DNA from: a virus
Taxonomy: Duplodnaviria; Heunggongvirae; Uroviricota; Caudoviricetes
Length of the DNA: 40,471 bases
Reading direction: 5' to 3' (one strand)
IMG/VR virus record: IMGVR_UViG_2565956717_000010
Coordinates: 1-40,471 of that record
Shown: one piece after another, positions 37,614 to 39,212 of the stretch
Layout: the number at the start of each line of letters is the position of its first letter
How positions within the stretch are numbered: position 1 is the first letter of the stretch
Notes under the pieces: model-generated
Told to the model about the DNA's origin: nothing
What the model saw: only the letters and a program-made list of their open reading frames with translations
Databases searched by the model: none
Translations under genes and position numbers: made by a program

Positions 37614-37913
37614 GTGAGAAAGTTAAGCCGACTTGAAAAATATCACATGAATAAGGTTTCAATGCGTAGTCCGTCAAAGATTGTCGCCGTTACTCCTGCG
37701 GCGATAGAGATCGAAAAACGCGCGATTGAAAGAGAAAAAAAAGGGCAGTTCCGCATTGCCGCTCACCTTTGGCTTCAGTGTATGGATGTTGCTTCTGGTG
37801 ATGTTGAGCGAGCAAGGATTGCGGTTCGCAGGGACCAATGTATCACAAAAGGTAACGGCCTTCGCCGTGGCGACTATAGCGGCATAGGATGTTGTGGGGT
37901 GGTTTATGACTAA
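37614..37913 (+). CDS. PerC/Pch-like small regulator candidate
   Basis: AAHLWLQCMDVASGDVERARIAVRRDQC fits the A..LW...M.....ER..I..RR..C pattern I associate with PerC-family proteins; start could be GTG 37614 or ATG 37647. Confidence 0.45.
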   Translation: MRKLSRLEKYHMNKVSMRSPSKIVAVTPAAIEIEKRAIEREKKGQFRIAAHLWLQCMDVASGDVERARIAVRRDQCITKGNGLRRGDYSGIGCCGVVYD

Positions 37914-38556
37914 GAAATACACACTAATCTATGCAGATCCACCCTGGGTATACCGGGACAAAGCCGCAGATGGTAATCGCGGTGCCGGTTTTAAATATCC
38001 GGTTATGAGTGTGCTTGATATCTGCCGCCTTCCTGTGTGGGATTTGGCCGATGAAAACTGTCTGTTGGCCATGTGGTGGGTGCCAACACAACCACTCGAA
38101 GCACTAAAAGTTGTTGAAGCCTGGGGATTCCGTCTGATGACCATGAAGGGCTTCACGTGGATAAAATGTGGTAGTCGACAACAAGATAAACTGGTTATGG
38201 GTATGGGTCACATGACTCGCGCCAATAGTGAAGATTGCCTGTTTGCAGTAAAGGGAAAACTACCTCCGCGCATTAATGCAGGGATCGTTCAGTCATTTAC
38301 CGCACCGCGGCTTGAGCATTCAAGAAAACCAGATGTCGTTCGTGAAAAACTTGTGCAATTGTTAGGCGATGTTTCTCGCATTGAACTGTTCGCCCGCCAG
38401 TCGTCTCATGGCTTCGATGTTTGGGGTAATCAGTGCGAAGACCCGGCAGTGCAACTACACCCTGGATACGCGTTGGCTATTGGCGGATTAACAAATGCAT
38501 TCAGCAATGCTCCGCTGTCACCAACAGACAACCAGGGGCGGGAGCGTTCAGCATGA
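37906..38556 (+). CDS. MT-A70-family N6-adenine DNA methyltransferase
   Basis: DPPW catalytic motif in [10 protein letters not shown] near the N-terminus; GGGGTGG RBS; stop overlaps phosphatase start (ATGA). Confidence 0.7.
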
Positions 38557-39212
38557 ACCTATATCAACGCATCAATGGCGCTGACTGGTGCAATATCTTC
38601 GTCGTCGGCGATCTGCATGGGTGCTACACGCTGCTGATGAACGAACTCGACAAAGTTTCATTCGACCCGGCGCGCGATTTGCTTATTTCCGTTGGTGACC
38701 TTGTTGACCGCGGCGCTGAAAACGTCGAATGCCTGGATTTGATTACTATGCCGTGGTTCCGAGCTGTTCGTGGCAACCATGAGCAGATGATGCTGGATGC
38801 ACTGGTCAACGGCGGAAGTTTCGGACATTGGATGTCAAACGGCGGTGGATGGTGGCGCCAACTTGATTCTGAGCAGGATGTGCAACTCAAATACCTTCTG
38901 CCAAAGGTTACCAACCTCCCGATGATTATCGAACTGGTTACCGGCAATAAGAAGGTCGTCATCTGCCACGCAGACTACCCCCACAACGAATACGCATTCG
39001 ATAAGCCAGTACCGGAAGAAATGGTGATATGGAATCGTGAGCGGGTTAGCGACGCGCAGGACGGTATTGTCTCGGAGATAACCGGTGCCGATTTGTTCAT
39101 CTTCGGTCATACGCCAGCACATCACCCACTAGTGTATGCAAACCAGATGTACATCGACACCGGCGCAGTGTTCTGCGGAAATCTGACGCTTACCAAAGTC
39201 CAGGAAGGATAG
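38553..39212 (+). CDS. Ser/Thr protein phosphatase, lambda NinI type
   Basis: Metallophosphatase motifs GDLHG, GDLVDRG, GNHE in order; size ~220 aa. Confidence 0.85.

Follow-up and report, generated by a model that had tools for sequence, protein, structure and literature searches.

The window analyzed here, which is the whole 40,471 nucleotide stretch of Caudoviricetes DNA held as IMG/VR record IMGVR_UViG_2565956717_000010, closes with a string of genes that runs from a recombination exonuclease and RecT, through two small proteins of the AlpA and PerC families, to an adenine methyltransferase, a protein phosphatase and, on the opposite strand, an integrase. The features of this region are collected in Table 1. 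A preliminary description had assigned positions 37906-39212 to an adenine methyltransferase and a Ser/Thr phosphatase, and comparison with Pfam, 1G5B and phrog_246 bore out the two identities and their exact coordinates; the matches of the two open reading frames to the MT-A70 and Metallophos families are far beyond chance.

Table 1. Genes and sites between the repressor-like gene and the end of the window
Feature	Position	Strand	Evidence and remarks
cI-like gene (HTH_3 repressor-like protein)	34086-34670		Pfam HTH_3; upstream of the promoter-like site
Terminator-like hairpin	34691-34710		3' of the cI-like gene, upstream of exo/recT
Promoter-like site TTGACA-17-AATTAT	34762-34790	+	Consensus scan only; would drive an early-left-type operon
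YqaJ-type recombination exonuclease	35275-36174	+	Pfam YqaJ, E = 4.9e-23
RecT single-strand annealing protein	36184-37206	+	Pfam RecT, E = 4.4e-57
AlpA-family small HTH protein	37256-37504	+	Pfam Phage_AlpA, E = 3.1e-5
PerC-family small protein	37614-37913	+	Pfam PerC, E = 6e-7, 30.1 bits (cut-off 22.6); phrog_868, E = 5.7e-62
Orphan MT-A70 (beta-class) N6-adenine methyltransferase, predicted, 216 aa	37906-38556	+	Pfam MT-A70
NinI/lambda-phosphatase-type Mn-dependent protein phosphatase, predicted, 219 aa	38553-39212	+	1G5B; phrog_246
Cargo cassette differing from phiV10	38559-39231	.	Alignments to phiV10
P4-type tyrosine integrase	39215-40471	-	Pfam Arm-DNA-bind_3, Phage_int_M, Phage_integrase

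The same description had the two genes co-transcribed with exo/recT toward the integrase, and the layout agrees. Downstream of the promoter-like site a scan found no plus-strand terminator-like site before position 39212, and since the integrase gene lies on the minus strand, the plus-strand operon meets int at its 3' end, and 2 nt separate the stop codons of the convergent phosphatase and integrase genes. The PerC-like and methyltransferase genes overlap by 8 nt at the stop codon of the one and the ATG of the other, and the ATG of the phosphatase in turn overlaps the methyltransferase stop codon (ATGA). RefSeq starts the PerC-like gene at an ATG at 37662, and gp33 of epsilon15, the orthologue of the AlpA-family protein, is annotated in its record as an excisionase and transcriptional regulator. 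This layout suggests that the exo/recT, AlpA, PerC-like, methyltransferase and phosphatase genes are co-transcribed.

The methyltransferase reading frame, opened by an ATG, matches the Pfam MT-A70 profile (PF05063) with an E value of 2.2e-22 and 80.2 bits against a cut-off of 23.9, its residues 9-180 covering profile positions 1-172 of 172. The catalytic motif IV is intact as DPPW at residues 11-14 (YADPPW, 9-14) and lies N-terminal to the SAM-binding region, which is the permuted beta order; among 34 homologues P12 and W14 never vary and D11 hardly does. Among solved structures the protein comes closest to ciliate MTA1 and METTL3, and the alignment reaches the C-terminal IELFAR segment. The protein is predicted to be a SAM-dependent N6-adenine methyltransferase, made up of a conserved core (residues 1-187) and a lineage-specific tail (188-216). 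An AlphaFold2 model built from the 34-sequence alignment had a mean pLDDT of 56 and a pTM of 0.52, a quality too low to make a fold search worthwhile. In PADLOC only the Type II methyltransferase model was matched (E = 4.5e-77), and neither PADLOC nor Pfam found a restriction endonuclease gene near the methyltransferase gene, whose neighbors are the PerC-like and phosphatase genes. With no cognate endonuclease alongside, we regard the enzyme as an orphan and not as part of a Type II restriction-modification system.

The phosphatase matches Pfam Metallophos (E = 1.8e-15), the NinI-like family phrog_246 (E = 1.7e-107) and lambda phosphatase 1G5B (E = 1.2e-99, residues 1-217 to 1-217). It is collinear with the 221 amino acid lambda enzyme (NinI, ORF221), with 145 of 217 residues identical (67%), and keeps lambda residues D20, H22, D49, D52, R53, N75, H76, H139, R162 and H186, so that the GDxHG, GDxVDRG and GNHE motifs and the metal ligands His139 and His186 are intact. 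We predict that it is a Mn-dependent Ser/Thr/Tyr protein phosphatase and an orthologue of NinI. Identity with the E. coli chromosomal phosphatases PrpA or PrpB was rejected, as its scores of 265.9 bits (NCBIfam equivalog cut-off 326) and 220.9 bits (cut-off 332) mark it as a paralogue. The preliminary description had viewed the locus against lambda-type phages, and it was right about the usual home of the gene. In lambda the gene is found ahead of Q in the rightward nin region, and the other phage homologues listed are all in the rightward (nin/replication) region, several of them directly adjoining ninE, whereas here the gene is the last of a leftward-type operon and abuts the convergent int. 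The closest phage alleles among the matches listed, those of phi80 and HK225, have only about 78% nucleotide identity, which argues against recent copying from a known nin gene. Presumably the enzyme would dephosphorylate host proteins, a role that is plausible. Lambda ninI is non-essential (PMC10695390). Our literature search found no paper on the role of NinI in phage biology and, for phage phosphatases as counter-defense, nothing on the NinI family; the 'phage phosphatases' that counter aRES are, to judge from the methods headings of the preprint, apparently Macro-domain proteins and not relevant here.

The lambda-type framing did not hold for the phage itself, which sequence comparison identifies as a phiV10/epsilon15-like Uetakevirus prophage of E. 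coli and not a lambdoid one. Its insertion site, seen in chromosomal context, adjoins guaA, which lies beyond the integrase in the host chromosome. With Uetakevirus PAS61 the segment shares 98% identity, and it matches phiV10 except for the phosphatase, with 97-99% identity outside the slot between the methyltransferase gene and int. The order is that of phiV10 and epsilon15, in which the repressor gene and small ORFs are followed by the exonuclease and RecT genes, then by AlpA, a 38-aa membrane ORF, the PerC-like and MT-A70 genes, the slot and a convergent int of the P4 type; YqaJ and RecT are separate proteins here and in epsilon15 but a fused protein in phiV10. In epsilon15, VB_ST_E15 and BUCT711 the common order is AlpA-PerC-like-(DUF1317)-MT-A70-slot-int. 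Contrary to the first framing, the methyltransferase is not in an unusual position, since the succession AlpA-PerC-like-MT-A70-int was found in every Uetakevirus examined, epsilon15 included.

The contents of the slot, on the other hand, vary among relatives. Where this phage has its 219-aa phosphatase, phiV10 has a 64-aa DUF1382 protein (DUF1382 is also found in TL-2011b), epsilon15 a 60-aa product annotated in its record as serotype conversion, a Salmonella prophage and BUCT711 ORFs of unknown kind of 59 and 63 aa, respectively, and HEMP4 an 82-aa ORF together with a 228-aa antirepressor-like ORF (recognized by eye). The NinI-like gene of BUCT711 is located in its rightward operon. Identity to phiV10 is lost just after a shared ATGAAC start and regained inside the last int codons, and both junctions are sharp. 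The phosphatase would thus have been gained by cassette exchange into a variable slot between the methyltransferase and the convergent int, and it is interchangeable cargo, not a fixed partner of the methyltransferase or the recombination genes. The locus shows that NinI-type phosphatases travel between phage types and operons as free-standing cargo, and such mobility speaks against a role bound up with the nin region or with the control of late genes. Both genes are ordinary accessory genes that are already known, carrying the same names in RefSeq and in the PAS61 GenBank record, and neither is mentioned in the PAS61 paper. The phosphatase version is present in about 143 of the approximately 540 E. 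coli genomes carrying the prophage segment; given these annotations and some 143 complete genomes with the arrangement, the finding matters little as it stands.

The methyltransferase most closely resembles, among characterized enzymes, M.EcoPA8orf6770P of the Stx2a phages PA8 and TL-2011c, with 155 of 187 residues identical (83%; residues 1-187, E = 6e-124). The two share the DPPW motif IV, and their variable internal loops (CG-S-RQxDKL and NAGIVQSF) are of one subtype; both genes are located toward the integrase end of the early-left region, and the gene downstream of M.EcoPA8orf6770P encodes DUF1382, the slot occupant in phiV10. They differ in the tail, which at residues 188-208 of the Stx-phage enzyme is unrelated to residues 188-216 here (the alignment stops at residue 187), in the overlapping upstream gene, which is PNB-2 there and PerC-like here, and in the phage, which is a Stx (Sepvirinae) phage there and a Uetakevirus podovirus here. 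No PNB-2 homologue was found in positions 33001-40471 of the window. M.EcoPA8orf6770P is highly similar to M.EcoGV (PMC10810198), for which GATC methylation in vivo is cited in PMC10810198 and PMC6602927. When purified alone, M.EcoPA8orf6770P had almost no activity on dam- DNA, its 1:1 complex with PNB-2 preferred 16S rRNA, and its C-terminal tail is suspected by the authors to bind PNB-2 (PMC10810198). The weak activity of the enzyme by itself and the rRNA preference with PNB-2 mean that GATC DNA methylation is contested for the closest characterized relative. An anti-restriction or epigenetic role for the orphan enzyme, as first proposed for this locus, is one published reading of such proteins, and a 16S rRNA methylase is the other. 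In the dispute over the small MT-A70 enzymes of prophages, which are seen either as DNA methylases of the Dam kind or as rRNA methylases that depend on a partner, the gene offers a natural comparator of modest value, having the Stx-phage catalytic core but another tail and another upstream partner.

Since PNB-2 is absent and the C-terminal tail is different, Dam-like methylation of GATC in DNA is the best inference for the enzyme described here, and the most likely of its activities. Under the action of PhiBZS1_p32, the MT-A70 enzyme of Serratia phage BZS1, dam- plasmid DNA became resistant to MboI and sensitive to DpnI (PMC7556043). This protein, HK639 gp35 and M.EfaBMDam (Tn1549), classed together as GATC-specific DNA methyltransferases of MT-A70 type, belong to the same Pfam family as our methyltransferase and are likewise orphans, and the MT-A70 gene of HK639, a lambdoid phage, lies in the pL operon after recT and before int, as it does here. 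HK639 gp35, a relative of BZS1 p32, shows 45% identity to the methyltransferase here and carries 23 additional residues in the loop that follows the TMKGFTW motif, so that GATC specificity is not simply transferable. The window contains 152 GATC sites against about 160 expected (observed/expected 0.93), which gives no support either way, and among palindromes only CTAG is depleted in the window, as is usual for E. coli DNA. The GATC-specific Dam of coliphage T1 (gp20) was considered as an anchor for MT-A70 specificity and rejected; it belongs to Pfam Dam (PF05869) and has no similarity to the methyltransferase here. The enzyme would probably be expressed on derepression of the operon, and a GATC methylase expressed in this way would hold rapidly replicating phage DNA in a fully methylated state. 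It is tempting to speculate that such methylation could weaken the mismatch repair directed by MutH while Exo/RecT recombination proceeds, and could shield the DNA from enzymes that cut unmethylated GATC. In a Dam+ host, a GATC methylase is largely redundant.

The locus as a whole is best explained by two independent accessory genes, a Dam-like methyltransferase and a cassette-acquired phosphatase, at the promoter-distal end of an early-left operon, an explanation that we hold to be probable although well short of certain. The substrate of the methyltransferase could also depend on its neighbor. Here the methyltransferase would be a catalytic subunit targeted by the upstream PerC-like protein, paralleling PNB-2 in the Stx phages; its substrate would be 16S rRNA, other RNA or partner-chosen DNA sites in place of bulk DNA, and its role would lie in regulation (of induction frequency and of host gene expression). 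We consider this combination unlikely. The 8-nt overlap of the two genes recalls the 83%-identical Stx-phage enzyme, which complexes with the product of its overlapping upstream gene (PMC10810198), but PNB-2 is missing here and the PerC-like protein is unlike it in sequence: BLASTP gave no alignment between the two, hhalign with small alignments gave a probability of 0.2%, and clustering of upstream ORFs gave no link. The STEC-type tail, the suspected PNB-2 binder, is also replaced. A PerC-like gene accompanies MT-A70 in all Uetakeviruses examined, yet in most of them a DUF1317 gene or another ORF stands between the two, and while PerC-domain and MT-A70 genes overlap by 4-10 nt in Dryocola, Buttiauxella and Acerihabitans, in a lambdoid rightward replication region, the upstream neighbor of MT-A70 is elsewhere NinB, an HNH endonuclease or a PD-(D/E)XK nuclease. 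(Automatic picking of the flanking ORFs at 47 loci mis-assigned several, including those in the window, and the account here is limited to cases confirmed with Pfam or BLAST.) Two natural in-frame PerC-MT-A70 fusions, P0001 and P0002, would fit a working partnership but may be rare errors or dead alleles; P0001, present on two contigs, was caused by a 1-nt deletion. MTA1, the closest solved relative, depends on DNA-binding partner proteins. Against such a dependence, BZS1 p32 (PMC7556043) and M.EcoGV (PMC10810198) methylate GATC in vivo without a partner, by the accounts given in these two sources. Overlap or adjacency of the two genes in two unrelated phage operon contexts, with the PerC-like gene translationally coupled to its neighbor, their co-occurrence in the genus members examined and the in-frame fusions allow the further reading that the PerC-like and MT-A70 genes form a mobile two-gene module with the PerC-family protein as a targeting or regulatory subunit, much as PNB-2 serves in Stx phages and the DNA-binding partners serve ciliate MTA1; this seems to us decidedly improbable. 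If it were true, the partner would decide what the enzyme really acts on, be it particular DNA sites, rRNA or another RNA, and PerC-family virulence 'activators' might act, at least ancestrally, via adenine methylation. It is highly improbable that the enzyme is instead of relaxed specificity, like M.EcoGII or Hia5, and methylates most phage adenines as a broad anti-restriction armor. Its small core of about 187 aa is without an obvious target-recognition domain, and non-specific enzymes of the beta class are known from other prophages (PMC7544214; the OS31 enzyme, PMC7556043), but these come from other families, and the characterized MT-A70-type relatives are GATC-specific and leave HinfI and Hin1II sites open to cutting (PMC7556043).

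Of a different kind are the alternatives to independent cargo genes that concern the phosphatase. This gene, and perhaps the methyltransferase gene as well, may be a lysogenic-conversion gene (moron) that is expressed from the resident prophage and alters host phospho-signaling or stress responses in the lysogen, in place of acting early in lytic growth; taken together, we regard this as possible but rather unlikely. In epsilon15 the slot gene bears the label of a serotype-conversion factor, which could do its work only in lysogens, although the label is a record annotation only. Transcription in lysogens is reported for the Stx-phage methylase and its partner, from a promoter induced approaching stationary phase, whereas our scan found no promoter-like site between recT and the phosphatase gene, which is translationally coupled to the upstream operon. 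A lysogenic-conversion gene would fit with the chromosomal E. coli paralogues PrpA and PrpB being the next-best NCBIfam matches (266 and 221 bits), and with the allele being intact, at an identity of at least 98%, in 146 complete genomes. In all 146 of 146 E. coli records this allele adjoins an MT-A70 gene, and an Ewingella prophage carries both genes no more than 1.5 kb apart in a nin-type region. These associations, and the ATGA overlap of stop and start codons, might be taken to mean that the methyltransferase and phosphatase are a selected functional pair, joined, for example, by regulation of the one by the other or by a shared counter-defense pathway. We found no evidence for joint action of the two, and such a pairing is scarcely credible, since in about three quarters of the prophage lineage the methyltransferase is found with another slot gene, BUCT711 has its methyltransferase and NinI-like genes in separate operons, NinI stands beside ninE in dozens of lambdoid phages with no MT-A70 annotated at the match, and the junctions at the locus are those of a simple cassette swap.

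The two genes singled out in the preliminary description, an MT-A70 adenine methyltransferase (the methylase) and a NinI-type phosphatase, were found exactly where it had placed them (37906-39212), as judged from open reading frames (ORFs), Pfam searches and alignment to lambda phosphatase. The methylase starts with ATG and encodes 216 amino acids in both the ORF list and the raw sequence. It matched Pfam MT-A70 (E = 2.2e-22), and in PADLOC it hit a model for Type II methylases derived from REBASE (E = 4.5e-77). Residues 11-14 form the catalytic motif DPPW. Among solved structures, the closest are MTA1, a DNA methylase subunit of ciliates (E ~1e-13), and human METTL3. 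The phosphatase, which also starts with ATG (219 amino acids), aligned with lambda phosphatase 1G5B along its full length (67% identity, E = 1.2e-99) and is classed as NinI-like in PHROGs; its NCBIfam scores for the chromosomal enzymes PrpA and PrpB did not reach the equivalog cut-offs. All of the metal-binding and catalytic residues checked are retained (D20, H22, D49, D52, R53, N75, H76, H139, R162 and H186). Since lambda phosphatase is a Mn-dependent protein phosphatase and these residues are conserved, it is safe to predict the same activity for the window enzyme.

Features of the early-left operon and of other regions of the window
Feature	Position	Strand
Glycine-zipper protein	1-516	+
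DUF5384 protein	532-1071	+
Lysis genes	1266-3078	-
Tailspike (1039 aa)	3386-6505	-
AntA-type antirepressor	7276-7926	+
288-aa ORF	8243-9109	+
cI-like repressor gene	34086-34670	+
Strong terminator-like hairpin	34691-34710	+
Promoter-like site	34762-34790	+
Two small ORFs	between promoter-like site and YqaJ exonuclease	+
YqaJ exonuclease	35275-36174	+
RecT	36184-37206	+
AlpA-like gene	37256-37504	+
PerC-family gene	37614-37913	+
Methylase	37906-38556	+
Phosphatase	38553-39212	+
Integrase (convergent with operon)	39215-40471	-

The last three genes of the string overlap in turn, the end of the PerC-like gene with the first 8 nt of the methylase gene and the end of the methylase gene with the first 4 nt of the phosphatase gene (ATGA). 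On the + strand, no terminator-like site was found downstream of the promoter-like site and ahead of 39212. Co-transcription of the two genes towards the integrase, as had been proposed, is a fair expectation from the same-strand layout, and the predicted operon meets int tail to tail. Only 2 nt separate the phosphatase stop codon from that of int, and the junction (39210-39217) has no terminator-like hairpin. Read-through from the early-left operon would run antisense to int. In the record of epsilon15, the int gene is flanked by annotated RNase III sites, a hint of RNA-level control of int.

A 2.1-kb segment had a 99.9% identical counterpart in the chromosome of E. coli ST95-32, in a prophage adjoining guaA, and was 98% identical to vB_EcoP_PAS61, a temperate member of Uetakevirus, the genus of phiV10 and epsilon15. 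phiV10 and about 12 relatives matched the whole segment except the phosphatase. Judging from these matches, the element is a phiV10/epsilon15-like podovirus prophage and not a lambda-type phage. The gene string AlpA, 38-aa membrane ORF, PerC-like gene, DUF1317 (in most members), MT-A70, a short gene and a convergent P4-type int recurs in epsilon15, VB_ST_E15, BUCT711 and one Salmonella prophage, so that the methylase is apparently a constant component of the Uetakevirus early-left operon. In lambdoid HK639 the MT-A70 gene likewise lies downstream of recT, in the pL operon.

The position between methylase and int, by comparison, behaves as a cargo slot. Identity to phiV10 continues past the methylase stop for two codons of the following gene (ATGAAC), breaks off, and resumes at ~39232, within the final codons of int, which places the slot at 38559-39231. 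It holds DUF1382 in phiV10 and TL-2011b, a 60-aa gene in epsilon15 (L055 3649-3831) recorded as a serotype-conversion factor/repressor, 59- and 63-aa ORFs without assigned function in the Salmonella prophage and BUCT711, an 82-aa ORF plus a 228-aa ORF judged by eye to be antirepressor-like in HEMP4, and the phosphatase in the window. The recombination module (35275-37206, + strand) encodes YqaJ exonuclease and RecT separately, as do epsilon15 and VB_ST_E15, whereas phiV10 has one fused 586-aa protein; together with the variation in the slot, this means that the early-left operon is mosaic at more than one point.

Within the phage collection, the window phosphatase allele was present only in PAS61 and BP9, and the next-closest genes were the nin-region NinI of HK225 and phi80 (~78% nucleotide identity). 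The lambdoid homologues listed all lie in the nin region, several adjoining ninE, which bears out the statement that this is the usual home of NinI; BUCT711, a Klebsiella Uetakevirus, has a NinI-like gene in its rightward replication operon and MT-A70 in the left operon. Across 5,426 complete E. coli genomes, the prophage segment (counted at >=95% identity) was present in ~540, with the phosphatase version in ~143 of these, and an MT-A70 gene adjoined the phosphatase allele (>=95% identity) in 146 of 146 records. The best explanation for this adjacency, which is no pointer to functional coupling, is a single cassette exchange that later spread with the lineage. The location reported for the two genes therefore holds and the interpretation put on it is supported in part, but what had been presented as unusual amounts to the usual mosaicism of phages at a cargo position. 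The arrangement is widespread, and both genes are already named identically in RefSeq and GenBank.

Published accounts of related enzymes disagree on substrate. The methylase shares 83% identity over core residues 1-187 with the enzyme of the Stx2a phages PA8 and TL-2011c, and the terminator sequence printed by Gong et al. was located in TL-2011c, confirming that this phage carries exactly the locus they studied. Purified, that enzyme had almost no activity on DNA; it bound PNB-2, which an overlapping upstream gene encodes, in a 1:1 complex that preferred 16S rRNA in 30S subunits, and the C-terminal tail was suspected to be necessary for partner binding (PMC10810198). According to the same authors, many similar enzymes are GATC methylases in REBASE annotation, and M.EcoGV, which their account describes as highly similar to the PA8 enzyme, gave GATC methylation in vivo when overproduced (PMC10810198); the listing by Forde et al. 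also gives M.EcoGV GATC specificity (PMC6602927). Independently, the MT-A70 enzyme of Serratia phage BZS1 protected plasmid DNA of a dam- host from MboI and made it sensitive to DpnI, with other sites still cut, and M.EfaBMDam of Tn1549 was reported as GATC-specific (PMC7556043). The window methylase shares 45% identity with the BZS1 enzyme's relative in HK639.

Of the three features that define the PNB-2-type rRNA holoenzyme, two are lacking at the window locus: PNB-2 is absent, and the C-terminal tail is replaced by 29 residues unrelated to that of the Stx-phage enzyme. On balance, and with somewhat better than even confidence, we consider Dam-like GATC DNA methylation on induction the most likely activity. 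Alongside Exo/RecT, such an enzyme might suppress mismatch repair directed by MutH while phage DNA replicates or recombines, and the methylation might shield this DNA from enzymes that cut unmethylated GATC. As a naturally occurring variant, the window methylase is of use in settling whether prophage MT-A70 enzymes act on DNA or on rRNA. Elsewhere, three MT-A70 homologues (P0043, P0116 and P0118) have 60-90-residue C-terminal extensions ending in a zinc-ribbon-like CPRCG...HTC motif, and others (P0078, HK639) have a 23-residue insertion in the loop following TMKGFTW; the ~187-aa core thus takes different add-ons, which may set target choice.

A different partner, the PerC-like protein, was also considered. 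PerC-like genes occur in 36 phage records, and those examined were Uetakeviruses with the gene always in the left operon with the methylase. In Dryocola, Buttiauxella and Acerihabitans prophages (L022, L024, L026 and L031; ~3500-4600 in each) a PerC-domain gene overlaps MT-A70 by 4-10 nt in a lambdoid rightward operon (CII, replication protein, PerC-domain protein, MT-A70, LexA-like, RusA), and thus the gene pair moves among phage operons that are unrelated to each other; at three of these four loci the PerC-domain protein has a weak N-terminal winged-helix match. Two in-frame PerC-MT-A70 fusions exist in public assemblies, P0001 (297 aa; L050 3001-3894), arising from a single-T deletion in a TTT run just 5' of the methylase start and present in two contigs, and P0002 (263 aa), also of deletion type. 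Against partnership, DUF1317 or another ORF separates the two genes in most Uetakeviruses, in other lineages the gene upstream of MT-A70 encodes NinB, an HNH endonuclease or a PD-(D/E)XK nuclease, and relatives methylate GATC without a partner, as far as the published accounts describe them (PMC10810198, PMC7556043). A partner role is accordingly quite improbable, but the linkage is the only feature we found beyond routine annotation and is a testable lead. The PerC-like protein encoded in the window also had a weak, sub-threshold match (23.6 bits) to the ANR family of small AraC-negative regulators. As to the phosphatase, proposed to act early in infection, expression in the lysogen is a live, though unlikely, alternative, given that epsilon15 carries in this slot a gene annotated as a lysogenic-conversion factor. 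ninI is dispensable in lambda (PMC10695390), and a literature search for NinI function in infection or defence evasion found no paper assigning one.

At the other end of the window, the lysis genes (DUF2514 protein, chitinase-like endolysin and holin) are flanked on the outside by the glycine-zipper gene, with a sub-threshold TraT-like match (28.1 bits against a cut-off of 31), and the DUF5384 gene; these two are candidates for a role in lysogenic conversion or exclusion. The AntA-type antirepressor (E = 7.3e-28) and the 288-aa ORF, the latter with no Pfam or PADLOC match, lie between the tailspike and the structural genes. The tailspike is a full endosialidase, with End_N_terminal, beta-propeller (E = 1.4e-233), beta-barrel and tail-spike domains and a Peptidase_S74 chaperone. 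Given this complete tailspike, the target of this phiV10-like temperate podovirus should be the K1 polysialic-acid capsule, which fits the ST95/APEC strains that bear near-identical prophage copies.
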